From an uncultured Methanospirillum sp. (GTDB lineage: Archaea > Halobacteriota > Methanomicrobia > Methanomicrobiales > Methanospirillaceae), in assembly GCA_964637135.1 (NCBI GenBank), contig CAZWTX010000007.1:62001-94857 (forward strand): a stretch of DNA of 32,857 bases. Direction: 5' to 3'. The notes beneath the pieces were generated by a model. That model made no database searches and had not been told where the DNA came from. It saw only the letters and a list, made by a program, of their open reading frames with translations. A program made the translations under genes and the position numbers. Of this stretch, positions 3,484 to 30,940 are shown one piece after another (position 1 is the first letter of the stretch; each line of letters starts with the position of its first letter).

Positions 3484-3784
3484 ATGACATCAGCAGTACC
3501 ATCGAAGAATATTTCTTCCACGATTCATCTCACAGCATGTCGTAAAAGAACGATATCACGGAGAATAATTATCTCTCTTTGGTTCCCGTGCCAAGGGTGA
3601 TGACCGGGAAGACAGTGATATCGACATCCGGGTAGAATTTCAACCCGGTGCTGATCTCCTTGATCTCTCCGGTCTGAAACTCTACCTGGAGGATGTATTT
3701 GGCAGGACGGTTGATGTCGTCCCCCGGCGGGCGATTCGTGAGGAACTCAGGGATGCAATCCTTGCGGATGCGATTGAGCTATGA
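3484..3784 (+). pseudogene. MNT nucleotidyltransferase pseudogene
   Basis: Hand translation: VVKERYHGE*LSLFGSRAKGDDREDSDIDIRVEFQPGADLLDLSGLKLYLEDVFGRTVDVVPRRAIREELRDAILADAIEL*. There is an in-frame TAA at 3566-3568, and ATG 3484 is out of frame with the conserved part. Confidence 0.85.
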
Positions 3785-3963: not shown

Positions 3964-4182
3964 GTGACACAAGCCATATCCCCGATTGAGCACATCCTGC
4001 AACAGATCGGCGAACTAGATCGGGAGGAGAAGGAAGTTCTTTATGAAGTTCTTGAGAAACGACTCATCGAAGAACGACGGAATGAACTCGCGAAAGTCCG
4101 GGATAAAACCATTCAGGAATACCGCAATGGAAGATTAAAATCCGGCACCCCGGACGAACTCTTTACTGATCTTGACATATAA
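3964..4182 (+). CDS. Putative type II antitoxin
   Basis: 72-aa charged helical protein ending in ..EYRNGRLKSGTPDELFTDL. Overlaps the start of the RelE-family toxin. Confidence 0.75.
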   Translation: MTQAISPIEHILQQIGELDREEKEVLYEVLEKRLIEERRNELAKVRDKTIQEYRNGRLKSGTPDELFTDLDI

Positions 4183-4450
4183 TCTCATCTGGAGCGAACA
4201 TTTTCGGCGTAGCTTCAAAAAATGGCTCCGGAAATATCCGGCTATGAAAGAGGCTTTCAAACAGACAATCCGGATGCTCGCAGAAGATCCTTTTCATCCA
4301 TCTCTAAAATCCCATACCCTCTCCGGCCAGCTGCATGGTATATGGGCTGCCCGGATATCCTATCAACACCGGATACTCTTCATCTTCGAGCAGACGACAT
4401 CGGGTGAAATACTTCTCATCGATATTGGCTCACACGAAGAAGTTTACTGA
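4172..4450 (+). CDS. RelE/YafQ-superfamily mRNA interferase toxin
   Basis: 92 aa with F.R.FKK, DPFHPSLKSH.LSG.L.G.W, RILF and a C-terminal IDIGSHEEVY. Confidence 0.88.
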   Translation: MTYNLIWSEHFRRSFKKWLRKYPAMKEAFKQTIRMLAEDPFHPSLKSHTLSGQLHGIWAARISYQHRILFIFEQTTSGEILLIDIGSHEEVY

Positions 4451-6021: not shown

Positions 6022-6990
6022 TTGGAAGGAATGGAATATTTAGAATTCTCTAAAGGTTCCCCGACAAACCAACAACATCCGATAGAATCACGTACGATCC
6101 GCTATTTCGATATTGCCTGGCTCTCCTCCTGTGACGGTCCCGGTTACCGGGTCGTTCTCTTTCTGCAGGGCTGTCACCTGCACTGTCCCTGGTGTCATTC
6201 GCCTCACTCCCATCCTTCAGAATCGCCAATTCTTTTCTTCAAAGCACGGTGTCTCTTATGCGGCCGTTGTGAAGAGAGATGCCCCTGTTCCGTCCATCGG
6301 ATACGGCCCTCGGGGCACGAACTGTTCCGGGAACAATGCTGCCGTTGCGGGAGATGCATTGATGCCTGCCCGGTCTCCGGGAGGGAATGTTCAAATGGTG
6401 CATTATACCTGCCCACAAAGGAAACCACGATTGATACTCTCTGGGATTTGGTATACCCTCAGATAGATCTTCTGCGTACCATCGGGGGCATCACCTTCAG
6501 CGGAGGAGAAGCATTGCTCCAGGCAGAAGCTCTGAAATCATTACTTCTCTTATGCCGGGAGGAGGGAATTCACACAGCCATCGAAACCTCTGGAGCATTA
6601 CCCCGCCAAAATCTGGCAGAAGTAGCAGGAATAGTCGATTGTTGGCTTTACGGTCTCCGGCCAACACAATACTATGTACCCCCGTATGCCGATCAAATCG
6701 AGAAAAACCTCACTTTTCTGACCGGATTCAAAACCCGGATCATCATCCGGACACCGGTTATCGCCGGTATCACGGACCTGCCCGAATCCCTCGAACGCAT
6801 CGCATCGAATATGCAGGCAAATCACCTGACAGAGATCCAGTTATTGCCATTCCACCAGGGAACTTCTCACTACTTTGACGCAATAGGAATACCCTGTCCC
6901 ATCGGTCCTGAAGCAATTCCTTCGGCAGAACGCCTGGAAACGATCCGGGACTTTTTTCAACAAAAAGGATTTGAGGCAAGGATCATGTGA
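6022..6990 (+). CDS. Glycyl radical enzyme activating enzyme (radical SAM with ferredoxin insert); start may be ATG 6031
   Basis: DGPG.R...FLQGC then CxxxCxxC (CHLHCPWCH), two CxxCxxCxxxCP motifs (CLLCGRCEERCP, CCRCGRCIDACP), GGITFSGGE, GIHTAIETSG, IRTPVI and LLPFH. Confidence 0.93.
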   Translation: MEGMEYLEFSKGSPTNQQHPIESRTIRYFDIAWLSSCDGPGYRVVLFLQGCHLHCPWCHSPHSHPSESPILFFKARCLLCGRCEERCPCSVHRIRPSGHELFREQCCRCGRCIDACPVSGRECSNGALYLPTKETTIDTLWDLVYPQIDLLRTIGGITFSGGEALLQAEALKSLLLLCREEGIHTAIETSGALPRQNLAEVAGIVDCWLYGLRPTQYYVPPYADQIEKNLTFLTGFKTRIIIRTPVIAGITDLPESLERIASNMQANHLTEIQLLPFHQGTSHYFDAIGIPCPIGPEAIPSAERLETIRDFFQQKGFEARIM

Positions 6991-7017
6991 CGAACAAGAA
7001 ACGAATGGAGAAGAATC

Positions 7018-9630
7018 ATGGCTACAAAAAAAGAATCAACCGTATTACCTCCGCTGCCCGATACGATGACCAGCAGAACCCGGCTACTCCGGCAAATCCT
7101 CTGGGATCGGGCACTTGAAAACCGAAAAGACGACTGGGTCGACAAGAATACTCTTCCGGATCTCTCAAAACCCCTCCCGGGTCAAACGAACCTGGAAGCA
7201 ATTATTGTCAGACGGGCCAGAGGAATTGCCGCGATGCTCAATGCATTAACCGATCCCAAACTCTCAGTGAAGACAAACTCGTTTAAAATTTTCCCGGGAG
7301 AACTTCTCGTAGGCATCCCCCCTATGGGTTCCAATGGTCTTGGAAAGATATTTCCGGAGTATCTCGATCATGAGGAGCGGCACATGGCCAGTATTGCAAA
7401 TCGTTCTGAACTCTCTGTGCTCGGCCATAATGTTGCCGATTACCAGAAACTGGTAACCCGGGGGATCGATTCGATCCTCGTTCACTGCGATACTGAGATC
7501 GCCAAGCTCCAGAAACAGATTCAAAATTCTCCTCAGAAATCGATGGGCCAGAGCAGTTATGACGATCTTCTGGACAAGAAGGACTTCTTTGAGGCGGTAA
7601 AAATCAGTTGTGAGGCGGTGGTCGAATACGCCAACCGTTACGCTGATCTGGCCGATCAGATGGCAAAATCAGAGCCAGACACACAGAGAAAAGTGGAACT
7701 GCTTGAAATTGCCAGAATCTGTCGTAAAGTCCCTCTAAAACCAGCCGAGACGTTTCAGGAAGCCCTTCAGAGTATCTTATTTCTCCATATCGGCCTTCGG
7801 GCCGGTATGGATCAGACCTCATTCGGGCGATTGGATCAGACACTTCAACCCTATCTGCAGAATACCGTCCGGCCGGGTGTCAAAGATCCGGTAAAGGCAG
7901 TTGAGCTGGTCGAGTGTTTCGTGATGAAAGCGGCTTCACCGCTCAATTTAACCACGGATCACCTGAATGATCAGGACCATGTCGACTATGGAATCAGCAT
8001 GGGCACTCAGGCCTGGTACGCAGATCAACGGGGAAATGTGAATCAGTTCCTGCAAAATGTTGTCGTCGGTGGAAAAGACCAGAAAGACCATGATGCAACC
8101 GTAGAGACTACCCATATCCTGATCCAGGCGTGGGCTAACGTCAATCTGCCAAGTCCTGGCCTCTATGTCCGGTTACACAAGAGCACTCCACAGGAACTGA
8201 TGGATCGGGTGGTATCCTCGATTACCCGGACCGGGATGATCCCCTGCCTCCTCAACGATGACATTATCATTCCCGGCCTGGTCAATGCCATGACCGAGGA
8301 CAAAACGGTGAAAAAACCCGAAGCCAGTAAAATGGCCTATGATTACTGTGTTGACGGGTGCTGGGAGCCGATTCTGAACGGTCAGTGCGACTGGACCTTC
8401 AATATGATTAACGGGCTTTTGATCCTCGAGTGTGCATTAAACGAAGGAGCCACGCTCGATTCAAACCCGATGTTACTCCGGGGCGGGAAGAGCAGTTACC
8501 GTACATCTCCGGTCCGGAACTCGAAAGACCTCAGGGATGCACTCAAGACCCAGATGGATTTTTTCGTCTTCAAATCTGCGGTTGCGATGTATAATTACTA
8601 CCTGCTTGATGAGTTTGTCATCCCTTCTCCCCTGCTGTCAGCATTCCTTGGCACCTGTCTTGACCGGGGGAGGGATAAATCCTGGGGCGGAACGAAGTAT
8701 ATCTTCGGGGGAACCCTCCTTTCCGGTCTCCCGAACATGGTGAATAGTATCGCAGCTCTCGAAAAATGGGTGTTTACGGCTAAAAAATACCAGATAAACG
8801 ATGTCCTGGGAGCATTCAGGTACAACTTCAAAGCCCCCGGTTCTGCCCCACAGATGCAGGCGGTGTATGCCAATATTCATTATGACTTCCTCTGCAACAG
8901 TCCGAAGTTTGGCAACAATGATCCTGCAACAAACAAAATAGCCAGGGACATCACCGATATCTTCGAGAAGTCTCTTATCGATGCAAAGAAGTTCGCCGAT
9001 AAAGTGTACCGGACTACTCCGGGTCATCCTGATGAAGCCAGGCATATCAGACGCTTACGGATGACTGCAGGGTATTACGGTCCCTCCTTGCAGGAACACA
9101 TGAGTACAGGAGACATCAATGTTTCATATGTCGCCGGTCTTGGAACGTTTGCAACCTATGCATTGATGGGCCTTGGAAGGGCTGCGTCTGCTGATCGTCT
9201 CGTAAACGAACCGCTTGCCATGAATAATACACCGCCACCCGGTACGGTCAGCGGTGGAGTCGGCCATATACTGGCTTCTTTCAATTCGTTGGGACTGGAA
9301 CGGTTTCCCGCCGGTGCCCCAGTCGACCTCTGCATCGAGGCGAAGACAGACACCTCTCATGGGCGGACAATGGCAGGTAAATTGATTAATGCAGCCATAT
9401 TGGATTTTCTGAAAAATAACGGGAGTATCCTGTCCATCACCCTCGGTGATACAGAACAGTACCGCAGGATTTACGAACTGGCAGTCAGGGCCAGTATGAA
9501 TGATCCACTGGCTGCCGAAGATCTGCTGAAATACGGCAATGTATGTGTTCGTGCAGGTGGCTGGCAGACCCCGTTCATCACGATGTCGCTTGCACAACAG
9601 GAGCATTATACTCATGCACCGATCACATGA
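7018..9630 (+). CDS. Glycyl radical enzyme (PFL-like superfamily, not PFL), substrate unknown
   Basis: 870 aa with GELLVG, P.KPAETFQEALQ, SFGRLDQ.L.PY, Cys loop DGC448WE450P, PKFGNND, and C-terminal Gly loop VR845AGG848W. Starts 27 nt downstream of the activase. Confidence 0.9.
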   Translation: MATKKESTVLPPLPDTMTSRTRLLRQILWDRALENRKDDWVDKNTLPDLSKPLPGQTNLEAIIVRRARGIAAMLNALTDPKLSVKTNSFKIFPGELLVGIPPMGSNGLGKIFPEYLDHEERHMASIANRSELSVLGHNVADYQKLVTRGIDSILVHCDTEIAKLQKQIQNSPQKSMGQSSYDDLLDKKDFFEAVKISCEAVVEYANRYADLADQMAKSEPDTQRKVELLEIARICRKVPLKPAETFQEALQSILFLHIGLRAGMDQTSFGRLDQTLQPYLQNTVRPGVKDPVKAVELVECFVMKAASPLNLTTDHLNDQDHVDYGISMGTQAWYADQRGNVNQFLQNVVVGGKDQKDHDATVETTHILIQAWANVNLPSPGLYVRLHKSTPQELMDRVVSSITRTGMIPCLLNDDIIIPGLVNAMTEDKTVKKPEASKMAYDYCVDGCWEPILNGQCDWTFNMINGLLILECALNEGATLDSNPMLLRGGKSSYRTSPVRNSKDLRDALKTQMDFFVFKSAVAMYNYYLLDEFVIPSPLLSAFLGTCLDRGRDKSWGGTKYIFGGTLLSGLPNMVNSIAALEKWVFTAKKYQINDVLGAFRYNFKAPGSAPQMQAVYANIHYDFLCNSPKFGNNDPATNKIARDITDIFEKSLIDAKKFADKVYRTTPGHPDEARHIRRLRMTAGYYGPSLQEHMSTGDINVSYVAGLGTFATYALMGLGRAASADRLVNEPLAMNNTPPPGTVSGGVGHILASFNSLGLERFPAGAPVDLCIEAKTDTSHGRTMAGKLINAAILDFLKNNGSILSITLGDTEQYRRIYELAVRASMNDPLAAEDLLKYGNVCVRAGGWQTPFITMSLAQQEHYTHAPIT

Positions 9631-9911: not shown

Positions 9912-10226
9912 GGGTTAATCGCTATCCTCAGCAATTTCAAAAGTTAGATCTCTCGTAGAACGGCCTTTTGCTGTTATGAAAAGAATCTTTCACGCGGGTC
10001 ATGTTTTGGTAACAACAGTTGCCCGGGTTCATATCAAAAATCTCTTTTCCTGCTTCTCATACAACCTTTACCGGTTATTTAGCCTTTGTAAAACAAATTA
10101 GGATAGCGGTAGCTATCGTATTTGGATATAAAAGAGGAACAAAAAACAGCATTACTCAAGCATAATCGATCATAGCCTTTATCCGAGGTACTTTTTTTCT
10201 TTTGATATGGGTTAATCGCTATTCTC
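9912..10226 (+). mobile_element. IS5-family remnant: transposase C-terminus plus right end, preceded by a second copy of the same end
   Basis: 9931-10101 translates AISKVRSLVERPFAVMKRIFHAGHVLVTTVARVHIKNLFSCFSYNLYRLFSLCKTN* (R...ER.F helix with the third DDE residue, YNL). A gatagc-ggta-gctatc palindrome follows the stop. gggttaatcgctat(c/t)ctc occurs at 9912-9929 and 10209-10226. Confidence 0.85.
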
Positions 10227-12294: not shown

Positions 12295-13467
12295 TCATGT
12301 CCGGGATCGTTTCCGGCTTTCCTCGATCTCCTTGCCAAGGATGCTGATCTCCTTGAACCGTTTCTTTTCGAACTGCTTGAGCCCGATGATTGCCTTTTGA
12401 TGCTCGAATGCCAGTTCCCTGAGGAGTTTCTGGTATCGTTCGAGGCGTTCAGGCCGGAGAATGCCATCGGCTATAGCCTTCCGGACGGCACACCCCGGCT
12501 CTGTGGTATGCGAACAATCTGAAAACCGGCATTGCACGGCAAATTCCTGAATGTCCCCGAATGACTCTGCAACATGTTCTTCGGCGGTCCAGATCCTGAT
12601 CTCGCGAAGACCAGGGGTATCAATGAGAGCGGTTCCATCTGCAAGGATGGAGAGATGGCGGGTTGTTGTCGTGTGTCTGCCTCTTCCGTCGTCTTCCCGG
12701 GTTGCTCCTGTTTTCCGGAGATCGCTTCCCGATAGTGCATTCATCAGGGTAGATTTCCCAACGCCCGATGATCCCAGGAATACGATTGTTTTCCCGTTCC
12801 CAAGGTACGGCGTAAGTTCTCCAAGACCGGTTTTTTGCATCGCACTCACGGCAATGACCGGGATATCCCCAAGCTCTTCGCCGATCTGCCTGACCCGTGA
12901 TTCACTATCACCTTGGATATCAGTTTTATTGAGGATGATGACGGGTTGTGCACGGGCACTCCTGACGATCAGGAGGTATCGTTCAAATCGTGCAATATTG
13001 AAATCATTCGCGGGATCGGTGACGATAAACGCGGTATCGATATTCGCTGCAAGGTGCTGTTCCCCCCCGGATTCTCCTGCTTCTCCCTGGGAAAGCGTGG
13101 TCATTCTCGGGAGAACGGCTACGATCATCGATGTGGCCTGTTCCGGCTGGTGAAGGATGACGACAAAATCGCCGACGACCGGAAATTCCTTTTTTGCGAT
13201 TAATGCCCCGGATATGGGGAGGGTCATCGTCCCGTCCGGGATCAGAACTTCATACCGTGTTTTATGCACGGTAGAAACTCTCCCGGGAATGTAGGGGCCC
13301 TCATATCTGAGGAAGAGATCCTGCCAGTGCTGGTTCCATCCAATCTGATCGAGGGTATGGGGAGATGATACTGAAAATTTATCATGATAAGAAGGGTTGG
13401 AGAGGGAGTAATAACTGATTTGTATCAATTGCAGCGAATGATGCCCCTTTAATTGTTTCCTTAACAA
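12295..13467 (-). CDS. rsgA: RsgA-family circularly permuted GTPase, copy 1; probably frameshifted just after its true ATG (13385)
   Basis: OB-fold PVVGDFV, G4 NKTD, G5 VSA, G1 GSSGVGKS, G2 GRHTTT, G3 DTPG and Zn motif CRFSDCSH..EPGC. The ATG homologous to copy 2 is 1 nt out of frame. Confidence 0.88.
   Translation of the reverse strand: MLRKQLKGHHSLQLIQISYYSLSNPSYHDKFSVSSPHTLDQIGWNQHWQDLFLRYEGPYIPGRVSTVHKTRYEVLIPDGTMTLPISGALIAKKEFPVVGDFVVILHQPEQATSMIVAVLPRMTTLSQGEAGESGGEQHLAANIDTAFIVTDPANDFNIARFERYLLIVRSARAQPVIILNKTDIQGDSESRVRQIGEELGDIPVIAVSAMQKTGLGELTPYLGNGKTIVFLGSSGVGKSTLMNALSGSDLRKTGATREDDGRGRHTTTTRHLSILADGTALIDTPGLREIRIWTAEEHVAESFGDIQEFAVQCRFSDCSHTTEPGCAVRKAIADGILRPERLERYQKLLRELAFEHQKAIIGLKQFEKKRFKEISILGKEIEESRKRSRT
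13409..13423 (-). promoter_or_regulatory. Conserved upstream element of rsgA copy 1 (candidate BRE/TATA)
   Basis: taataactgatttgt is identical at 13409-13423 and 19373-19387, each 23 nt upstream of the homologous ATG. Confidence 0.5.
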
Positions 13468-13579: not shown

Positions 13580-15151
13580 TCAGGAGGCAATCACATAAGA
13601 GCGGTCTGCATATGTCTTCTGCCTGATGAACCGGGAACCACCTGTTGAAGATCCGGTTGTGGTCACCGGTTCATCCCCCTGGGAAGCCATACTGTCCCAG
13701 TTCATCGGGGTTCCTCGTGATGCGTCGGCATAAAAGAGGCTCTGCATGGAAGATGCCGGATTCTGACCGGGGCTGATCTGATGTTGGACATATCCTTTCA
13801 GGGATACCGGTTTTTTACCGGTCTCATCTCCGATCACGAGGTTTCCATCGGTTCTTACATTCCCGTTTACGTTAAAAGCATTCCGGTTGATATGCGGGGA
13901 AGTGATATCATAATTTCCGGAGAATGAAAGGGTCTGATCGCGGGTAGTAAGGATATCCTCACCTGAATAGAGAGAACTTCCCTGTTCCGGATTGACCGGA
14001 GAGGAGCCTGTTTCCTGATTATCTGACAGGTACCTGTTATCTTCATCCTGATAGTAGATACGCCGTAATCCTTGCGTACCTGATGAGAAATCGTACCTCA
14101 CAGCCAGTTGGGACTCCTCACCCGAGTATCTGCCAGTCCCATAGTACCACATATCAGAAATTTCTTCTCCCTCTATCTGGTGCTCTGAAATATCTGAATT
14201 TTTTTCATTTTGGGTTATGGTAAATAAGGAACCGGCCGCTGCCTCCATCCCGGTTACATATTGAAAGGAGAACGCTTCTGTTGGCAGTTTGTACGCATTT
14301 CCAAACCGGACATCAAGAACGCCTCTATTGAGGTCCATCCAACTTACAGTCATCGGGTTATCAGTTACTCCTGAACTCTGAACCCGTCCAGATGTGGTAT
14401 TCCGGATGAAATATGAGAGGATATCAGTACTTTCTTCCGGTGTTATATCCTCCGGTGAAGATGATATCAGATCGGGGAGATCATCTGATATTTCATCTCC
14501 GATTTGAACAGGAAGGGATGATGCCATGGTATCCCCGTCAAGGGATCCAAATGAGATCTGGCCGTCAGGTTCTGCGGTATCAATTATCCTGATTTGGGCT
14601 CCAGTTAAGGAATCAACCAGGCTGAGACTCACCGGGTACCGGTCACCCGTATCTATATCAGTACTGAATCCGGACTGGAGATACATGTTTCCGGTGATCT
14701 TTTTCGTTTCAGAATAACCCCTCCCCATTGCCAGCGATTGAGCGATATCCCCGTCATTGCGACATGCCACCGATCTCACATTCAACCGCTCGGCATTCTC
14801 GACTTCCACGGTAACTGCAGTCGCGATATTTCCGGTGGTCTGGTTTTGAAACTGATACCGCCAGACCGTCTCATCGGTCCCGATGATTTCAAGGGTTGAG
14901 ACGGTGACATCCCCGTATTCATCGGTCACCCGGATTTCGTCTGACACACTCCCGATTCCTGAGATCATTCCGGAGTCATCCGACACATCGATCTCTGCTC
15001 TGACCGTTTCAATCGCATCAGGAGCATTTATTTCGGAGAGCGTAAACGTCTTCGGATCAAAGGAAGAGAGATTATCCGGTATAGCCGCAGAACAAAACCC
15101 CACCACCGTAATGAGGAGAAGTATGCTGAGAATTATTTTCCCCCAAATCAT
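13580..15151 (-). CDS. Secreted hypothetical protein, acidic and Ser/Thr/Gly-rich
   Basis: 523-aa ORF with signal peptide (MIWGKIILSILLLITVVGFCSA). No family recognised. Confidence 0.8.
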   Translation of the reverse strand: MIWGKIILSILLLITVVGFCSAAIPDNLSSFDPKTFTLSEINAPDAIETVRAEIDVSDDSGMISGIGSVSDEIRVTDEYGDVTVSTLEIIGTDETVWRYQFQNQTTGNIATAVTVEVENAERLNVRSVACRNDGDIAQSLAMGRGYSETKKITGNMYLQSGFSTDIDTGDRYPVSLSLVDSLTGAQIRIIDTAEPDGQISFGSLDGDTMASSLPVQIGDEISDDLPDLISSSPEDITPEESTDILSYFIRNTTSGRVQSSGVTDNPMTVSWMDLNRGVLDVRFGNAYKLPTEAFSFQYVTGMEAAAGSLFTITQNEKNSDISEHQIEGEEISDMWYYGTGRYSGEESQLAVRYDFSSGTQGLRRIYYQDEDNRYLSDNQETGSSPVNPEQGSSLYSGEDILTTRDQTLSFSGNYDITSPHINRNAFNVNGNVRTDGNLVIGDETGKKPVSLKGYVQHQISPGQNPASSMQSLFYADASRGTPMNWDSMASQGDEPVTTTGSSTGGSRFIRQKTYADRSYVIAS

Positions 15152-18257: not shown

Positions 18258-19349
18258 TCAATCCTGGAATTTTCTCCGGTTCTCTACAATCTCCTTACCC
18301 AGTATACTGATCTCCTTAAAACGCTTCTTTTCAAATCGTTTCAGCCCGATGGTTGCCTTGTCACGTTCAAATGTAATCTCTTTCAGGAGTTTTTGGTACC
18401 GGTCCAGTCGTTCGGGATGGAGGATTCCGTCCCCGATTGCCTTCCTGACGGCACAGCCGGGTTCGGCAGTGTGCGTACAGTCAGAAAACCGGCACTGCAT
18501 GGCAAGATCATGGATATCTCCGAAGGTTTCATCAACACCCTCTTCAGCGGTCCAGATCCGGATCTCCCGAAGGCCGGGGGTATCGATCAGGGCAGTTCCG
18601 TCCGGGAGGACAATAAGATGACGGGTCGTCGTCGTATGTCTGCCCCTCCCGTCATCTTCCCTGACGGTCCCGGTCTTCTGGAGATCGGTACCCGATACAG
18701 CATTCATCAGGGTGGATTTACCCACTCCTGAGGATCCGAGGAAGACCACCGTTTTTCCGTTTCCGCGGTAGGGATCGATATCGCTCATACCGGTTTTATT
18801 CATTGCACTGAGCGCAATGACCGGGATATCACCGATCTGATCGCGAATCATCGCAATCCGGGAAGCGATATCATCACAGAGATCGACCTTATTGATGATG
18901 ATGACCGGCAGGGCCCGGGCACTCCGGACAATGAGCAGGTACCGTTCAAGTCGGGCAAAATTGAAGTCATTCACGGGATCGGTAACGATGAATGCCGTAT
19001 CGATATTTGCTGCGAGCTGCTGCTCTCCCCCTGACTCTCCGGCTTCACCCCGGGAAAGCAGGGTCATTCTCGGAAGAATGGCAACGATCATGGATGTGGC
19101 CTGTTCTGGCTGGTGCAGGATGACCACGAAATCGCCGACCACCGGAAACTGTTTCTTTGCCTTCATGGCTCCTGATACGGGAAGCGTCATTGTTCCCTCA
19201 GGAATCAGTACTTCGTACCGTGTTTTCTGGACGGTGGAGACCCTCCCGGGAAGGTAAGGACCTTCATACTTGAGAAACAGGTCTTCCCAGTGCTGGTTCC
19301 ATCCGATACGGTCAAGGGAATGCGACGATGATTTAAAGGAATTCATCAT
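18258..19349 (-). CDS. rsgA: RsgA-family circularly permuted GTPase, copy 2 (intact; start set at MMNSF)
   Basis: NKVD, LSA, GSSGVGKS, GRHTTT, DTPG and CRFSDCTH..EPGC. Highly similar to copy 1. Confidence 0.92.
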   Translation of the reverse strand: MMNSFKSSSHSLDRIGWNQHWEDLFLKYEGPYLPGRVSTVQKTRYEVLIPEGTMTLPVSGAMKAKKQFPVVGDFVVILHQPEQATSMIVAILPRMTLLSRGEAGESGGEQQLAANIDTAFIVTDPVNDFNFARLERYLLIVRSARALPVIIINKVDLCDDIASRIAMIRDQIGDIPVIALSAMNKTGMSDIDPYRGNGKTVVFLGSSGVGKSTLMNAVSGTDLQKTGTVREDDGRGRHTTTTRHLIVLPDGTALIDTPGLREIRIWTAEEGVDETFGDIHDLAMQCRFSDCTHTAEPGCAVRKAIGDGILHPERLDRYQKLLKEITFERDKATIGLKRFEKKRFKEISILGKEIVENRRKFQD

Positions 19350-19717
19350 GATGAGGAGCGTTGGGGCGGGAATAATAACTGATTTGTCAAAGGAGCGGTC
19401 ATACCGGATGCAGGATGTATAAACCAGCGGTGAACGGATCGTGAATGTATCATCTGTCGACAAAGAGAGAGACAAGAAACAAGGAAAAAATGAACGGGAT
19501 CTGCACCCGGCAGGATTGCAATGCTTTCATCCGGAGGATTACATCGTGCGACTCCGGTTTGTATATCGATGAACGGATAGAATACTTCTGGTTTTCCCGG
19601 ATAGTCTATTCACCCGGTTTCGACCGGGTTGATCTCCCCGTATCCGATCCAGATAAGGAACGATGAGAATCAGACAACCCATCGTTCCGATGTGTGCGCT
19701 AAAAAAGGGGACAATAA

Positions 19718-20182
19718 TTACATCCAGAGGCGGAAAATGGTGTTATCGATAACTTTTAGGCTATCGACAAAAGGATTCCCCTTTTCAGGTCCGTAAACAC
19801 AGGTAACATACCGACCATTTGAGGCCTTTAGGGTAATGAGATCCGGTTCAAGAAAAGTAACTTCAAAAAGTTCTTTCTCTCCAATTGTCGCGACATTTGC
19901 CATCATCCACCCGTCATCATCCCGGTAGGTCAGGTATTGCCCTTTTTTTGTCTTTAATGCACATTTTGAGGTAACACCGGGAGTAATATTGGCAGTTAAT
20001 GTTGTTTCCGGAATACCATATCTGCCGGATCTTAATTCAATAACTTCCCCTTCACAATGCGGAATGTAAACATAATGCGTATTCTTTTGGTTTGATAATG
20101 AAAAACTGATGGTTTTTTCTTGAGGGATTACCGCAAGCATCATGGCTAAAAGACTACGAAACAGACTAAATTCTCGAATCAT
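19718..20182 (-). CDS. Small protein with fascin-like (beta-trefoil-type) C-terminal repeats
   Basis: ALKTKKGQYLT...MANVATIGEKELFEV...ITLKASNGRYVT matches the fascin-repeat pattern. GGAGG RBS before ATG 20182, which is preferred over the track start 20266. Confidence 0.65.
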   Translation of the reverse strand: MIREFSLFRSLLAMMLAVIPQEKTISFSLSNQKNTHYVYIPHCEGEVIELRSGRYGIPETTLTANITPGVTSKCALKTKKGQYLTYRDDDGWMMANVATIGEKELFEVTFLEPDLITLKASNGRYVTCVYGPEKGNPFVDSLKVIDNTIFRLWM

Positions 20183-20455
20183 TATACCTCCTGATGGATT
20201 GAGAATACCTATCGGGTTTTTTCCGATCCTCCCCGGTTGGAAAACACCAGGAAACTGAGGATCCAATCCCTCGTCTTCTCAGGATCCTTTCATCGCAGAA
20301 GCGACAGAATTTCTTTCTCTTTAACTATAAATTTTAATTTTTAGAATTCTTTTCAACAGAATTGATTAATTTAATGACATTAAAAAAACATCCTGAATTA
20401 TAAAAAATTCGGGAACGGATATCTCGGAACGAAAAAAATCGGGGGAATTTTCGGA

Positions 20456-23363: not shown

Positions 23364-24539
23364 TCAGGGAAAAGTGACGATAACATCATTTTCCATGAGC
23401 CGGTCACTCTGTGGGATCGGTTCATCGAAGAACGTGGCAGAGAAATTATCCTCGTCAAACTTCCCGGTCACATCGAACGAGTGGTACACGATCGGATACC
23501 CTTCGCCTCCCAGGGGTGACGGGTTGTCGGTAATGACCTGGAAGTGGAGGTGGGGAGCATCGGAATTGCCGGTGTTGCCCATCAGGCCGATCACCTGGCC
23601 TTCCGTAACCGCATCGCCTACCTTCACCCTGACCGATCCATTGATCATGTGGCCGTAGCAGGCATATTTGTCGTTCCCGAGATCGATGACAACACCGTTG
23701 CCGAGTGCGGTTTCAAAGCTCTTCGGAGGTTTCTGGGTCGTTATTTCGATGTCAGGGATGCCATCCCGTGCATAGACAACCGTTCCCTTGCCGACAGCAT
23801 AGAGTTCTTTTCCAAATCCGTAATAATCCCTGGAAATCGTTTCGTTGCCGGAGAAAAGAGTTCCATTCTCCGGATCAAGATACATGAAGTCCTGTGCATA
23901 TCGCTGCGGTACCCGGGTTACGTTGGATATGGTTACCTGGGAAGTGATATGGTGTACTACCGGAGAGGTCGTCTCCATGATAACCCAGCCCGGGCCCTTG
24001 ACCGGAGATCCGACCACAACCGGAAGGAGGTCTTTTCGTACGGTTACTTCCCCGCCGGTTATAACGAGCGGTTCGAGTCCTTCTTTGGTCCGGTTCAGGA
24101 TCACCCGGTGGGTGAGTTGGTTAGGTACATCAGCGGGGGGTACCGTGAACCAGATGGATATCCGCGGGCTAGATAACTTCGGAGTCCCATTCTGCCGTTC
24201 TTCCATCGTTGGTGGCGGAACGCTGACCGGGTAAGAGGTCCTGGCTAATACCGAAGCGTCCGGCGAGTAGAGGATCGCTCCCGTCGTGGCATCGAGTACC
24301 TCGACGGTTTGCGGCACAAATGAGGTATTCCCAAGGCCGGAAAATTCGAGTTCATAGGCGATATTGGTCCCGTTCATACTCTCAACCGGAATAGGTCCGA
24401 ACGGGACGGTCATGATAACAGGCTGCGTTGCCTGAACCGGTTCAGAACCGGTAGCAACCGGGGTTTCCTGAGCAAACCCCGCAGAGATGACAAAAATAAT
24501 CAATGTGATCAGAATAATCGGCGCAGTCTTCAGCAACAT
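23364..24539 (-). CDS. Secreted M23-family zinc metallopeptidase
   Basis: Signal peptide, HH...QRYAQDF (first Zn ligands), GNGVVID....YACYGH, V.VGD.V..GQVIG.MGNTGNS.APHLHFQ (HxH). Start set at MLLKTA. Confidence 0.9.
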   Translation of the reverse strand: MLLKTAPIILITLIIFVISAGFAQETPVATGSEPVQATQPVIMTVPFGPIPVESMNGTNIAYELEFSGLGNTSFVPQTVEVLDATTGAILYSPDASVLARTSYPVSVPPPTMEERQNGTPKLSSPRISIWFTVPPADVPNQLTHRVILNRTKEGLEPLVITGGEVTVRKDLLPVVVGSPVKGPGWVIMETTSPVVHHITSQVTISNVTRVPQRYAQDFMYLDPENGTLFSGNETISRDYYGFGKELYAVGKGTVVYARDGIPDIEITTQKPPKSFETALGNGVVIDLGNDKYACYGHMINGSVRVKVGDAVTEGQVIGLMGNTGNSDAPHLHFQVITDNPSPLGGEGYPIVYHSFDVTGKFDEDNFSATFFDEPIPQSDRLMENDVIVTFP

Positions 24540-24684
24540 GATGTAACATGAAATAGTTCCCTGCAACCGTCAAAAATATATGGATTGATCGATCGAAGCC
24601 GAATGCTCATCAGGGCCGATGGGCCTGTTTTTGATTCAGGTAAAAATCATTTCAGATCTTTTATGATAACTTGCAGGAGAGGTA

Positions 24685-26267
24685 ATGTCTGATGCTATGC
24701 TTCCAGATCTCCCCAGCCGGTACCTGATCGGCATGTTGATCGGGCTCCTGTTCATCGCCATGACCGGATGTATCAGTATTGCAGCCCAGACAACGACCTC
24801 TCCATCTGAATTTGAGAATAAATTCGTGGCACTTATCTCACAGCCCCGGTATGATCATGCCAGCTGGGGTTTTATCGTCGTCGATCCGGAGACCGGAGAA
24901 CCACTCTTTGCGAAGAATGCCGATGAAATGTTCACCCCTGCGTCGACCACGAAACTCTTCTCCTCGTCAGCAGTTTTTGACGCTCTCGGCCCGGATTACC
25001 GGATTAAGACCCCGGTGTATGCAGTCGGAACAATAGACCCGGCTGGAACCCTTGACGGAAACTTCGTACTGGTTGCCAGCGGTGATCCGACCATGGGCTG
25101 GCGGACACTCCCTGATGGAACCATTGAATTTACCAATATTGACCATTCAGAGTAAAACGCTCTCCTCACGAAGACAGAACCGGTTGCCGGTCTGAATGAT
25201 CTTGCAAAACAGGTCAAAGACGCAGGGATTTTGCAGGTGTCAGATGTCATCATCGATGACCGTCTCTTCCAGAATGTCAAGGGAGAGTTTTGGCCCTCCT
25301 TTCCCCGATTGTCATCAACGAAAACATCGTCGATCTCACGATAACCCCTGGGGCGCCCGGTTCTGCCCCAACCGTCATAATGCGTCCGGAGACCGCCCTG
25401 TATACCCTCAATAACCTGGCCACTACCGGGCCGGCAGGAAGTTCTACCCTCCTGGATGCCGGGGAAGAACCTGCCGGAACGATAGTTCTTGTCGGGACGA
25501 TTGCTGCCGATGCCGGCGAGGTCAACAAATCGGCCTCTATTATGAATCCTGCAGTATTCGCCCGTACGCTCTTTATCGAAGCCCTCACCCGCCAGGGAGT
25601 CGAGGTTTCAGCGACAGCGACCGGCGAGAATCCCACCGAACAGCTGCCGTCTACAGAAGAATACAATACTGCAAAGAAGGTTGCAGAACTCACCTCCCCG
25701 CCCCTATCCGAGGACGTGAAATTGACATTGAAGGTCTCGCAGAATATGCATGCCAATTATTACATCATACTTCTCGCCCTCTCTGAAAACAAGACGTCCT
25801 TTTCCGACGGCATGATAAAGGAAGGTGAAGTGCTCCGATCTCTCGGTCTCGACACTACCGACGTAGCACTCGGTGACGGTGCCGGCGGTGACCGGGTCGA
25901 TCATATCTCACCCAGGGCCCCAGCCCAGCTCTTAACGCTGATGAGCAAACAGCCGTATGCCGATCAATTCATACGTGCACAACCGGTTCTCGGGGTCGAC
26001 GGGACAACCGTCGATCATTGTGCACCCGGCAATCCGGCCTGTGGTCATGTCTACGCAAAGACCGGGAGTTATTCGTATCCGGATCCCCTCAATGGACGGA
26101 ATATACTGATCTCCAAAGGACTTGCCGGATATGTTGATACAAAAAGCGGAAAACAACTCGTGTTTGCCGAATACGTAAATAATGTTCCGCTTACAGACAA
26201 TCTCACCGAAAACGATGTCTGAAAGGATCTCGGGAGTATTGCAGGTCTCATCTACGAGTACTACTAA
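24685..26267 (+). pseudogene. dacB: PBP4/DacB (peptidase S13) D-Ala-D-Ala carboxy/endopeptidase pseudogene
   Basis: SxxK (PASTTK), SxN (VSQN) and KTG motifs are present. The gene is broken by an in-frame TAA at 25153-25155 (frame continues NALLTKTEPVAGLNDLAKQVKDAGI..DVIIDDRLF), a frameshift near 25280-25290, and TGA 26220-26222 (continues KDLGSIAGLIYEYY* to 26267). Confidence 0.9.
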
Positions 26268-28389: not shown

Positions 28390-28992
28390 ATGTCATATAT
28401 TTCTGAAAAATTAGAAGAAACCGATTATTTTTTAATGCAAATGATAATTATTGAAAACTTATTAATACGGCCACACTCTCTACAAAATCGAAACAGGTTT
28501 GTTAAATTTTTTATCTCAACTCATATAAGCATAGAAAAAATTTTTTTAAAAAATAATTCCATAGGTAGAATTACTCAATTACAAAAATATTACCAATATA
28601 ATTTTAGTGCCTTTTTACATGCCTCAAATTCTGTTCTTGATTATGTGAAGGAAAATGATAAACAACTGTTTAGAAATTCTATTAGTAATAACTGTAATTT
28701 AATTTTTATGAGGAATATAAGAAATATTAATACTCACCATAAACCACAAAAGGGAAAGATGCTGCAAGTATTACATCTAGGAAGCAATGAACCCTATGTA
28801 GATAATCACTTTTTTTTTGAGGGAATTAATTGGAATTTATTAGGGTCTCATATATTTGATCATTGTAAAAAAAGATGTTGTAATTCTAATAACACATGCC
28901 CTGATTGTATCAAAAATAAATTTGTTACAGATTCTTCAAGAATTTTTTTAAATAACTTGAAAAATTTTATTAAATCAAATAATATTAGTTAA
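28390..28992 (+). CDS. AT-rich foreign gene, candidate HEPN-superfamily nuclease
   Basis: 200 codons stay open despite roughly 20-25% GC (eye estimate). Helical pattern YNFSAFL.A..SV.DY followed by RNINTH (Rx4H), and a C-terminal Cys cluster. Confidence 0.6.
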   Translation: MSYISEKLEETDYFLMQMIIIENLLIRPHSLQNRNRFVKFFISTHISIEKIFLKNNSIGRITQLQKYYQYNFSAFLHASNSVLDYVKENDKQLFRNSISNNCNLIFMRNIRNINTHHKPQKGKMLQVLHLGSNEPYVDNHFFFEGINWNLLGSHIFDHCKKRCCNSNNTCPDCIKNKFVTDSSRIFLNNLKNFIKSNNIS

Positions 28993-29716: not shown

Positions 29717-30940
29717 TCAGCCTTTCCCGTCCCTGAACAGCGGAGGGAGGTGTACGTTCTGCCATTCTTTATCCATGACATTCACCCAGAGGTTCAGAGT
29801 CTTCGGTTCAAAGACAACCTGATGGTTGCTTGAGAACAAACCGCCTCCAAGGTCCGAATGACAGAACTTGGAGCCCCCATCCTCGATGCAGACATCCCGG
29901 ATATCCATCATCTTTTCAGCATCGATCGATCCTTTTGCTTCCTCTGCCTGGCTGAGGAGATTGTTGTACCGGGAGAGCGTATGCTCAGCAGGAGCAGGAA
30001 GGTTCCAGGACGAATCCACGAAATGGTTGGCAGCCGCAACAATTCCGTCGCCACTCCTCTGCACGGTCCGGTTGGTGGATTTCTCGTAAACATACGCCTT
30101 ATCCGGACCGGCGACATCCACGATCCAGGCAGCGTCAGGGAGGGTTCCCCGTATCGCTGCATCGAGAGCAGTCAGGTCAGAATAATCGAACATGAACCTG
30201 AAATATTCGGTGATAAATTCAGGAACCGGTTCCTGTGGATTATCATTGAGGCCTGAGTTATCATCGGCGATGAAGAGACCCTTATCGTTCACAAAGGTTT
30301 CCGGTCTGACTCCGGCCGGGCTCCAGGTTGCAATCGCATTGCTGCCGTCAGTCGGGCGGTAAATGGTAAGAACATACCATTCCGTAAACGGCAACAAAGA
30401 ATCAGCAAGATCCCAGTTACGGGAGACGACCGGAGATCCGTCGGTCGTGTAATCTCCCCAGGTTGCCAGGTACGAGCACTCGACCGGTGCAGCCTGGGTC
30501 TCGGAAGAGGCAATTATCAGGAAGATAGGCCCATAATAAATGACTGCTACCTCATCAGGCGAAAGCCCGGAGGTCTCTGACATGCCGGTCAGGATCTCCT
30601 TTACCCGTTCCGGGTAATTCACGGTGACATTTCGGGCGAGAGTCTGTATCTCGTCCATGGTCATCCCCTCCCCGGTAACGGTGTCAATGATGAAGGTATA
30701 CTCATCATTCAGTTCGGTTTTCATCAGGCCGCCGTACTGCCGGCCCATCTCGCGGTATAAGCCGGTAAGCACGATGACCGGGTAGATTCCGGCCTGGTAC
30801 CGGTATCCATCCTCGAACGTGGCAACGAGGGGGAGATCAGGTCCCAGGGTCGCGGCAGGAGATGTATTCTGCGATACGGACAGCACTGATGCCGGGATGA
30901 GCAGCATACAGAGCAGCAGAAGAAGGGGATACACTCGCAT
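29717..30940 (-). CDS. Secreted peptidase C45-family Ntn hydrolase
   Basis: Signal peptide, G.YREMGRQYG, E..GM.E.SG, autoprocessing Cys in VECS, SRNWD, VNDKGL, ANHF and SRY. Confidence 0.85.
   Translation of the reverse strand: MRVYPLLLLLCMLLIPASVLSVSQNTSPAATLGPDLPLVATFEDGYRYQAGIYPVIVLTGLYREMGRQYGGLMKTELNDEYTFIIDTVTGEGMTMDEIQTLARNVTVNYPERVKEILTGMSETSGLSPDEVAVIYYGPIFLIIASSETQAAPVECSYLATWGDYTTDGSPVVSRNWDLADSLLPFTEWYVLTIYRPTDGSNAIATWSPAGVRPETFVNDKGLFIADDNSGLNDNPQEPVPEFITEYFRFMFDYSDLTALDAAIRGTLPDAAWIVDVAGPDKAYVYEKSTNRTVQRSGDGIVAAANHFVDSSWNLPAPAEHTLSRYNNLLSQAEEAKGSIDAEKMMDIRDVCIEDGGSKFCHSDLGGGLFSSNHQVVFEPKTLNLWVNVMDKEWQNVHLPPLFRDGKG

Follow-up and report, generated by a model that had tools for sequence, protein, structure and literature searches.

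A glycyl radical enzyme of an uncharacterised DGCWE/RxGGW clade and its dedicated activase in a methanogen genome

A contig of an uncultured Methanospirillum sp. carries a glycyl radical enzyme (GRE) with a dedicated activase that belongs to no characterised class. Within the window, the whole 32,857-nucleotide stretch analysed here, the activase open reading frame (ORF; 6022–6990, plus strand, 322 aa from a TTG) lies 27 nt upstream of that of the GRE (7018–9630, plus strand, 870 aa), and neither gene is disrupted, every residue needed for radical handling being in place. An earlier note, made from the DNA letters alone, had described this two-gene unit, activase first, exactly as it was found. 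It had also presented the pair as an isolated oddity without context, but the family proves to be widespread and mostly bacterial, with its usual partners missing at the window locus, and the host is apparently a rare recipient.

The GRE matches PF02901 (340 bits) alone among Pfam models, and has no DyP-peroxidase domain. Its Cys loop, DGCWEP (residues 446–451; 8353–8370, plus strand), aligns with GCVEP of 1R8W and 9F3W, making C448 the predicted thiyl radical and E450 the predicted base, with W449 as a clade-specific aromatic between them. The Gly loop, VRAGGW (residues 844–849; 9547–9564, plus strand), aligns with RVAGY and places the predicted radical site at G848. All six DGCWEP residues occur in 120 of 120 top homologues, and R845, G847, G848 and W849 (RxGGW) in 119, the single miss being a fragment; these unusual loops are thus a clade signature and no one-off quirk. 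Position 846, Ala in the window GRE, is variable (V in 73, A in 42 and I in 4 of 120). The enzyme deviates at four of the 167 near-invariant columns (median, one), and one of these departures, K519, is common to its closest relatives. Both motifs and their key residues had been read correctly in the earlier note, as had two apparent insertions, around residues 660–700 and before the Gly loop; against 1R8W and 9F3W both are real (~38–39 positions in the profile region 645–710 and ~16 positions before the Gly loop). Its view that the loops match no characterised class holds in that none fits, but Trp after the radical Gly is also found in Archaeoglobus fulgidus PFL2.

An AlphaFold model of the GRE (pLDDT 91, pTM 0.93) matches all PFL-like GREs, with their ten-stranded barrel fold, in both Foldseek and VIA. 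The best VIA match is 2F3O (Z 35.5, rmsd 2.4 over 697 residues), tied with several eliminases; PFL2, eliminases and isomerases score Z 31–35.5, pyruvate formate-lyase (PFL) 27, and class III RNR 16–18. Fold, Cys and Gly loops, and the dedicated activase all place the enzyme in the PFL-like GRE superfamily. Within that superfamily it falls far below every class cut-off, with a best score of 239 against 678 (TIGR01774). The CutC model (TIGR04394) gave 197 bits against 1050, the C–S lyase models (IslA/IseG/HpsG) 198 and 189 against 1000 (NF048011 and NF048009), and those for GRE decarboxylases and X-succinate synthases 140 against 1100 (NF033718) and 105 against 1150 (NF033715). No conserved Arg that could match the Arg/Gln/Arg sulfonate anchor of IslA/IseG/HpsG occurs at 133–137 or 705–711, by a tentative mapping to IslA numbering, and the ESM Atlas returned generic GRE clusters and nothing more specific. 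An adjacent Cys-Cys pair on the Cys loop marks PFL (PMC13450708, section 5.3), whereas the DGCWE loop has one Cys, and PFL is the weakest of the PFL-like fold matches. CXE is described as the mark of eliminases and isomerases, with His164 as the acid of glycerol dehydratase (PMC13450708, sections 5.6–5.7), and that review also gives the CXE Glu to the decarboxylases HPAD and IAD. The motif C448-W449-E450, present in 120 of 120 homologues, is accordingly not exclusive to eliminases and isomerases; combined with His137, it points to eliminase- or isomerase-type chemistry, much as had been suggested earlier from the single Cys and Glu.

In quick tree runs that included YbiW, glycerol dehydratase and a CutC-like sequence, these references fell in a separate clade (SH-aLRT 100), and the expectation that the enzyme would not cluster with a characterised class survived this comparison. 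No description of the DGCWE/RxGGW family was found in the literature covered, largely open-access papers.

The activase is a GRE-activating radical SAM enzyme with an auxiliary two-cluster ferredoxin insert (TIGR02494, 204 bits against a cut-off of 174), the sole such match above cut-off in the genome, and it passes none of the class-specific activase models. Its start is probably the ATG at 6031 (319 aa), which is preceded by GGAAGGA. All 63 family activases compared keep C51/C55/C58 and the eight auxiliary Cys. The gene adjoins the GRE in 70 of 80 loci, several of the remaining 10 ending at contig ends, and 27 of 35 GRE splits recur in the activase tree, with 20 of 22 recurring in the reverse direction. 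The GRE family has a dedicated, co-evolving SAM activase.

The region around the cap helix, an element placed between strands 2 and 3 (PMC13450708, section 4.1), has been rebuilt through the deletion of ~55 residues and the insertion of ~19. The segment from K110 to H137 (7345–7428, plus strand) spans 28 residues, compared with ~80–84 in canonical GREs, and the enlarged cap-helix region (residues 304–346; 7927–8055, plus strand) spans 43, compared with ~24. The latter, a candidate specificity element, contains the conserved residues Q319, D320, H321, D323, Y334, D336, Q337, R338 and N342, and is the lowest-confidence part of the model (pLDDT 64–67 over 321–340). The invariant H137 aligns with glycerol dehydratase His164. 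Alignment to Clostridium butyricum glycerol dehydratase and YbiW also locates a GLGTF motif (9136–9150, plus strand), whose G709 and F711, kept in 119 of 120 homologues, align with Tyr640 and Ser642 of the former. Together these two residues predict a larger pocket, and G709 in place of Tyr640, along with the 55-residue deletion, suggests room for a larger substrate, all pocket residues being placed by alignment alone. By the same placement, the aromatic position of strand 3 falls on Leu345 (120 of 120), with Phe or Tyr one residue earlier. Around the predicted site the conserved residues are chiefly acidic (D265, D320, D323, D336, D446, E450 and D770). A strand-3 aromatic packs on the substrate in both CutC (F395) and IslA (W374) (PMC8473560).

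That the host is a methanogen, as the earlier note stated, is borne out by McrA in the genome, an archaellin-like gene (recognised by eye) on the same contig, and the failure to find MttB or MtaB in the genome, which is 97.7% complete. Mis-binning of a bacterial contig is unlikely given the archaellin-like gene, a phosphoesterase on the contig that is 77–86% identical to the copies of congeners, and nearest named GRE relatives in the Methanosarcinales. This TIGR03768 phosphoesterase (860–2548) was rejected as a member of the module, as it occurs in 14 of 24 congeners that have no GRE, clusters with no neighbour at 104 other loci, and lies 3.5 kb from the pair with an opposite-strand asparaginase between. 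Among the 21 window ORFs scanned there is no dehydrogenase, microcompartment or small-subunit gene, in line with the earlier note, and an Rfam scan of the window gave no match. Elsewhere the genome encodes two aldehyde dehydrogenases, one Fe-ADH, a 5'-nucleotidase and a PLD-like protein, with neither an aldehyde:ferredoxin oxidoreductase (AOR) nor, in a search run without a positive control genome, the HAD partner being found. Around the pair lie toxin-antitoxin and nucleotidyltransferase genes, and downstream a repeated element (9993–10226, no strand assigned) with 93% identity by blastn to a stretch of contig C51. In translation, the opposite strand of this element resembles a possible C-terminal fragment of a transposase.

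The spread of the GRE family is very patchy; searches of 24 congeners and 400 other genomes of the order did not turn up the gene, and the pair was likely acquired horizontally. Its protein is 76% identical to the nearest relative with synonymous sites near saturation, which points to long separation under constraint; dN/dS is 0.08 to the nearest archaeal copy, with dS near saturation, and 0.16 between two Methanosarcinales copies. Among viral contigs, none of 23 pattern matches was confirmed and no relative was found, a phage collection gave only four partial, distant matches, and no PADLOC model matches the GRE. Nothing seen here marks this radical chemistry as special to methanogens.

Across 80 non-redundant loci, a phosphoesterase or nuclease lies within two genes of the pair in 50, and none of the former in 30; the window's own subclade (L004–L009, L059–L062, L097) is poor in phosphoesterases. 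Within the same distance, a lipoprotein HAD is found at 29 loci, always adjacent, and AOR, although absent from most loci, at 12, with 5'-nucleotidase at eight, calcineurin-like proteins at six and PLD-like proteins at five. Of the genes adjacent to the pair, 51 of 121 are phosphoesterases or nucleases, against 1–3 of 130 genes at positions at least four genes away, a contrast in which the category was defined after the data were seen and related loci do not count as independent. Separate tree branches repeatedly show partners of unrelated folds, and the commonest partners look exported, with export signals judged by eye. Neighbours directed at nucleic acids (5'-nucleotidase, non-specific endonuclease, endonuclease I, RNase T2, adenosine deaminase, HD/Ham1) outnumber those directed at lipids (PS decarboxylase-like, patatin, sphingomyelinase-like), and the PLD-like partner, which weakly matches Nuc endonuclease and MitoPLD, may therefore be a nuclease. 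In three loci the gap from GRE to AOR is -3 to 15 nt. Beside the pair there is no recurring transporter, kinase, aldolase or nucleoside phosphorylase and, among ORFs of at least 90 aa, no recurring small conserved gene.

The family is placed by tree between two lineages of DyP-peroxidase–GRE fusions (AU p=6e-5), which carry PF20628 or PF21105 and keep the same partner genes as the activase-paired family. In one Methanosarcinaceae genome, activase and GRE precede a broken DyP-GRE remnant and the same AOR. Such fusions have been classed as DyP subclass P2 (PMC9719856) and termed 'DyP B-PFL' (PMC5041501); they have been noted since 2016, with no function assigned, and the name PFL is unsupported because the loop has a single Cys. 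Searching 400 genomes from the phylum of genome G404 with a DyP-fusion profile gave no full-length fusion, so the sharing of partners rests on four loci (L135–L138). In the search for longer fused forms, of 1620–4625 aa, the only one was a eukaryotic C2-DyP-GRE. The idea that the two Trp form a DyP-specific electron relay is weakened by an unfused clade of ~750 aa that also has DGCWE and RxGGW.

We tentatively favour, at somewhat under even confidence, a CXE-type eliminase whose substrate would be a hydroxylated, dephosphorylated compound, most likely derived from a nucleoside or sugar, and whose product would be an aldehyde; within that reading, a nucleoside- or pentose-type substrate is a little more likely than not. 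Exported nucleases and phosphatases would release dephosphorylated products, and the activase would install a radical on Gly848 that relays to Cys448, which would abstract H from a carbinol carbon. Glu450 would then deprotonate the hydroxyl as a neighbouring C–O or C–N bond is cleaved, His137 and Asp265 perhaps donating protons. The aldehyde product is suggested by the AOR linkage only, and AOR would oxidise it and reduce ferredoxin; in this host, partners encoded elsewhere would act in trans (the 5'-nucleotidase, PLD-like gene, two ALDHs and Fe-ADH). Counting against this reading are the lack of a recurring transporter, kinase, aldolase or nucleoside phosphorylase, which a catabolic route would usually show, the occurrence of CXE in HPAD and IAD, the partner-poor loci, the absence of AOR from most loci, the failure to find an AOR or HAD partner in this host, and the four departures of the window copy from near-invariant columns. 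In this host the pair is an orphan, with no copy found in the 400 other genomes of the order. A broader proposal, which we consider doubtful, is an undescribed GRE class acting on nucleic-acid breakdown products with two interchangeable means of ignition: anaerobes would use a SAM activase and other hosts a fused haem peroxidase, the two having swapped before the same AOR in methanogen-family genomes. The haem domain would be the radical source in the fusions, possibly by hole-hopping via the conserved Trp/Tyr beside Cys and Gly.

Whatever the chemistry, the window copy may have been left stranded in a mobile hotspot and serve no function in the methanogen, a somewhat unlikely state in keeping with the missing AOR and HAD partners, the lack of hits in the 24 congeners and 400 genomes of the order, a region not syntenic with six congeners, and a frameshifted GRE copy in another methanogen-family genome (G562); both frames are intact here, however, the 76% identity at near-saturated synonymous sites implies constraint, and the GC content of the pair (0.505) matches the contig (0.504). 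It is unlikely that the GRE serves a mobile stress or conflict module as its effector or damage-control enzyme, modifying or destroying a nucleotide-type metabolite once the activase (in anaerobes) or peroxide (in DyP fusions) sets it off. Patchy spread, the toxin-antitoxin, nucleotidyltransferase and repeated elements of the window, the lack of a conserved transporter, and further neighbours (trypsin-PLD, patatin, HD, Ham1-SIR2, HNH, MBL hydrolases and DUF2278) would suit such a module, as would a fungal DyP-PFL gene whose induction is 3-fold with H2O2 and 18.5-fold with peroxyacetic acid (PMC5041501), but the most frequent partners seem to be exported, AOR belongs to metabolism, and the PADLOC, viral and phage searches speak against it.

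Quite unlikely is a phospholipid head-group lyase acting on ethanolamine, choline, glycerol or serine-derived alcohols, for example a B12-independent ethanolamine ammonia-lyase yielding acetaldehyde and ammonium, the latter useful to a methanogen. PLD-like, patatin, PS-decarboxylase-like and sphingomyelinase-like neighbours, acidic residues that suit an amine, and an AOR that suits acetaldehyde are set against His137 where the CutC-like sequence has Asp, Leu345 at the aromatic before QN (glycerol dehydratase Tyr339), a G709 suggesting a pocket too large for a C2 substrate, and the possible nuclease identity of the PLD-like partner. Release of phosphorus by radical elimination from a phosphatase-resistant phosphate ester or phosphonate, as a scavenging kit for any host, would account for why a hydrogenotroph lacking AOR has kept the pair; every partner liberates phosphate, and locus L015 comes directly after a pst-like operon. 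It is nevertheless very unlikely, as K110 and R338 are the sole candidate basic residues, and a scan for Pho-box-like repeats with three consensus patterns showed no upstream enrichment (3/68 against 13/160, 2/68 against 4/160, 3/68 against 15/160). The anion-binding positions of IslA (Arg189, Gln193 and Arg678; PMC8473560) have no evident Arg counterpart by a tentative mapping, and the same paper reports no IslA turnover of hydroxyethylphosphonate. That the GRE is a divergent glycerol/propanediol dehydratase, CutC or PFL is barely credible: databases call it 'formate C-acetyltransferase' or 'pyruvate formate lyase family', and its best sequence and fold matches are glycerol dehydratase, propanediol dehydratase and CutC, yet identity is only 20–28% with all classes tied, every class HMM is far below cut-off, the loop has a single Cys, the references stand apart in the tree, and Tyr640, Ser642 and His281 are not kept.

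According to a 2026 review, all characterised PFL-like GREs are bacterial and whole clades are without experiments, a gap clearest for archaea (PMC13450708, section 7); the DGCWE/RxGGW clade fits none of its seven classes, and the review makes no mention of DyP (0 occurrences). As an activase-paired sister should be activatable by standard methods, the substrate question becomes testable for both forms, and this would then allow a test of whether the haem domain can replace the SAM activase. If the two-ignition proposal is true, the window pair offers a tractable route to the substrate of the class and a first test of peroxide-started glycyl/thiyl radical catalysis. For the methanogen itself, with one orphan copy, the importance is modest.

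Compared with known systems, the GRE resembles glycerol dehydratase (1R8W) and 1,2-propanediol dehydratase (5I2A/5I2G, 9RCO) in fold (Z 35, rmsd 2.7–2.9), CXE, H137 as the His164 equivalent, and an activase with auxiliary clusters, but at ~25% identity its cap region is rebuilt and its locus has no ADH, ALDH or microcompartment genes alongside. Of His164, His281, Tyr339 and Tyr640 only the first is kept, with His281 replaced by D265 (D or N in the family), Tyr339 by L345, Tyr640 by G709 and, in addition, Ser642 by F711; apart from His164 and Glu435, the roles of these dehydratase residues are ones that we assume. CutC (5FAU, 9F3W) shares the fold, CXE and a WT segment after the Cys loop (T460 in the window GRE), but the CutC-like P0180 has Asp at His137, and the window GRE has Leu at the aromatic position before strand 3. 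The YbiW/PflD sugar isomerases (8ID7, 8ID0), which set a precedent for opening a sugar ring by radical chemistry, share CXE and the His137 equivalent, with H321 aligning with YbiW His334; at ~22% identity, Arg453 and Ser662 of YbiW, which we take to bind phosphate, are replaced by T460 and G709, and no aldolase or PTS genes lie near the pair. A. fulgidus PFL2 (2F3O), archaeal and the tied top structural match, reads DGCVE and RVAGW, sharing DGC and the Trp after the radical Gly, but is 27% identical, with Val at Cys+1, a canonical RVAG loop and no enlarged cap region. The DyP-PFL fusions share an aromatic-X Cys loop (GC[WYF]E), RxGGW, GxGTF, the 55-residue deletion, the enlarged cap region and partners (AOR 93%, calcineurin-like 45%, PLD-like 44% and DUF2278 38% identical), whereas the window GRE, ~26–37% identical to the fusions tested by tblastn, has no DyP domain and is paired with a dedicated SAM activase.

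On re-reading of the window sequence, the two open reading frames described in the earlier note stand as read there, with their loop motifs and residue numbers: an activase at 6022/6031–6990 and an 870-aa glycyl radical enzyme (GRE) at 7018–9630, both on the forward strand and both intact, the latter retaining all of its radical residues (C448, E450 and G848). Profile searches identified the upstream protein as a GRE activase (TIGR02494, 204 bits; cut-off 174) that contains a CxxxCxxC motif plus a pair of auxiliary ferredoxin motifs, and matched the downstream protein to PF02901; none of the GRE class models scored near its own cut-off against it. The AlphaFold model of the GRE is confident (pLDDT 91) and has the GRE fold, and structure comparison placed it about equally close to all PFL-like GREs at 23–27% identity (A. 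fulgidus PFL2, Z 35.5; propanediol dehydratase, Z 35.0; glycerol dehydratase, Z 34.9; CutC, Z 34.8). The suggestion that no known type accommodates this enzyme was upheld, in that it is a GRE superfamily member outside every characterised class tested. No description of the family was found in a literature search covering few subscription papers.

The loops, which the earlier note described as atypical, are a clade-wide signature. A total of 623 homologues was obtained from 8000 scored candidates, and among the best 120 of these DGCWEP is present in all 120 and RxGGW in 119, the sole exception being a fragment. Screening 1.84 billion representatives with a profile, together with a tree that took in 107 of 145 candidate rows after random thinning of the distant ones, revealed a superclade whose loops read GC[WYF]E and RxGGW, separate from the canonical GCVE/RVAGY enzymes. 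An additional unfused clade of ~750–820 aa (proteins P0134–P0164, P0171, P0185, P0218 and P0252) carries DGCWE/RxGGW loops, and its cap length is highly variable.

The nearest lineages are fused to a DyP haem peroxidase domain, found at the N-terminus of 19 of the 21 long homologues scanned; the remaining two are the CutC-like P0180 and P0262. The activase-paired family groups with the DyP lineage P0126/P0128 (SH-aLRT 99–100) and next with a second DyP lineage (98–99), and the family and the DyP lineages stand apart from three reference GREs (SH-aLRT 100). A tree uniting all DyP fusions was rejected (AU p = 5.9e-5; 16 rows, quick tree, the fusion group having been named only after inspection of an earlier tree), so the family has either lost its DyP domain and works with an activase, or DyP fusion took place on two occasions. 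One eukaryotic protein of 1621 aa (P0220) is a C2-DyP-GRE fusion.

In relatives, the pair has recurrent neighbours. Fifty-four loci from genomes and 51 from metagenomes were collected, one of them lacking a recognised GRE ORF, and were reduced at 90% identity to 80, the window excluded. The activase adjoins the GRE in 70 of the 80 and co-evolves with it, 27/35 and 20/22 well-supported splits recurring between the two trees. A phosphoesterase or nuclease lies no more than two genes away in 50 of the 80 loci, most often a lipoprotein-type HAD protein (29 loci; nearest structure 4OVY, an unassigned entry), followed by 5'-nucleotidase (eight), calcineurin-like (six) and PLD-like (five) proteins, with alkaline phosphatase, non-specific endonuclease, EEP and HD proteins in single loci or a few. 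These types are enriched beside the pair, at 51 of 121 adjacent genes versus 1 of 130 genes at least four positions off (rising to 3 of 130 with TatD and a PD-(D/E)XK protein included), the control being sampled from 241 distant genes under a stricter E-value and the category being defined post hoc, with the data already seen. None of the 241 belongs to the HAD, calcineurin-like, 5'-nucleotidase or PLD clusters. An aldehyde:ferredoxin oxidoreductase (AOR; best PDB match 1AOR) is present in 12 of the 80 loci, and a divergent AOR-like gene lies on the opposite strand in two further loci. In L049 the pair is accompanied by an AOR; this record is labelled Mycobacterium leprae, probably through a binning error. 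In two Peptostreptococcaceae loci (L054:11066–18590 and L055) the pair is followed by an HD hydrolase, a Ham1-SIR2 fusion and a 1285-aa protein, a block resembling a nucleotide-centred defence block.

Partners are shared with the DyP-fused forms. At DyP-type loci of Asticcacaulis, Ralstonia and Hymenobacter the neighbours include DUF2278, PLD-like and HAD proteins, with 38–44% identity to the partners at activase-paired loci, and no activase is annotated within the stretches examined; the Hymenobacter record has the GRE annotated as two pieces and DyP as a separate gene. Among 177 genomes of one methanogen family, the GRE family gene is intact in two and frameshifted in a third, and a fourth carries a DyP fusion. 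The fusion genome (G568; contig C150, locus L135) has the gene order DyP-GRE, AOR and exported calcineurin-like phosphoesterase, on a contig that stops ~600 bp upstream; its assembly contains no activase over the TIGR02494 cut-off, and each of four family-gene carriers has one. The host of this peroxidase-fused GRE is likely to be a strict anaerobe. In G402, a Methanosarcinaceae genome with McrA, the activase and the family GRE are followed by a DyP-GRE 3'-end remnant (L004:10796–11394) and then by the same AOR as in G568 (93% protein identity; 89% at the DNA level over 3,074 bp). Two readings fit this arrangement: an in-place replacement, or an ancestral tandem that has decayed. The frameshifted GRE in G562 (its contig C7, L134:9066–12546) has an RVGGF loop, and its activase lies downstream rather than upstream.

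The host genome (2.8 Mb, 97.7% complete) contains McrA, with neither MttB nor MtaB found in it, and an archaellin-like gene is located on the same contig (C7) as the window. The pair is rare: it was not found in 60 relatives, nor in 400 genomes of the order, five of which carry only a distant, different GRE. Within g29, another genus of the host's family, a distant, different GRE of ~900 aa occurs in 5 of 13 genomes (L120–L124), with an RVAGF loop in L120. The closest named relatives of the window GRE come from two Methanosarcinales assemblies (75–76%), and in the tree these are nested among bacterial sequences, a placement that points to horizontal gain.

The surroundings of the pair are unstable. 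Beyond the phosphoesterase there is no synteny with six congeners, and a repeated element lies nearby, as do two short MNT-type nucleotidyltransferase ORFs that share 74% DNA identity over 153 bp, together with a YafQ/RelE-type toxin gene preceded by a small partner (132–449, ~3490–3780 and 3970–4450). A TIGR03768 metallophosphoesterase (860–2548) is resident in 14 of 24 congeners and patchy in the order. Elsewhere in the window are RsgA-type GTPase paralogues 5 kb apart (12295–13467 and 18258–19475), which in this archaeon represent a ribosome GTPase family of bacterial type; a small FRG1/fascin-like protein (19718–20266); an M23 peptidase and a D-Ala-D-Ala carboxypeptidase (S13) at 23364–26222, peptidoglycan-type enzymes in a methanogen, the latter split over two ORFs (24685–25155 and 25290–26222); and ORFs of 523 aa (13580–15151), 200 aa (28390–28992, within a 35% GC stretch) and 407 aa (29717–30940) with no Pfam match.

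In the mechanism we propose, the radical would be relayed from Gly848 to Cys448, a hydrogen would be abstracted from a carbinol, Glu450 would assist elimination, and the aldehyde product would be handed to AOR. The weakest part of this scheme is the substrate. More of the partners at the neighbour loci are directed at nucleic acids than at lipids, and the pocket appears to be larger than that of diol dehydratases; together these favour a nucleoside or its sugar. Ring opening might, for example, start at a 5'-hydroxyl that is free, in a manner analogous to YbiW, which would explain a prior phosphatase step. The conserved residues are mainly acidic, disfavouring a phosphorylated substrate; an amino alcohol would be compatible with them.

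A simple pathway is disfavoured by the lack of any recurrent transporter beside the pair among the loci compared, by the 30 of 80 loci without a phosphoesterase/nuclease partner and by the post hoc nature of that category. A role for the GRE in stress or conflict is a real rival to the proposed elimination chemistry, and one we consider rather improbable. DyP-GRE fusions are already in print, as an unexplored arrangement: PMC9719856 suggests a role for DyP in protecting 'PFL' against H2O2, and PMC5041501 calls the significance of the DyP-PFL fusion elusive and reports peroxide induction. The window copy may be idle in its host, though we judge this less likely than not. Neither AOR nor the HAD partner was found in the host genome; a 5'-nucleotidase, a PLD-like gene, an Fe-ADH and two ALDHs are present on its other contigs. 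The dN/dS of 0.08 to the nearest copy (dS ~2) shows constraint along the path to that copy and is no proof of current use.

No GRE class of the DyP-fused kind is listed in the available part of PMC13450708. The family was aligned with E. coli YbiW, the CutC-like P0180 and a 787-aa C. butyricum GRE (Cys433; activase then ADH downstream), which is taken to be glycerol dehydratase. The family has further shared features that the earlier note did not pick up. Relative to canonical GREs, the span from K110 to H137 is 28 residues rather than ~80–84, and the cap region (304–346) is 42–43 residues in the family and the DyP fusions versus ~24. The GxGTF motif places Gly and Phe at the positions of glycerol dehydratase Tyr640 and Ser642. 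His164 of that enzyme (His137 in the window GRE) and the CXE Glu are retained.
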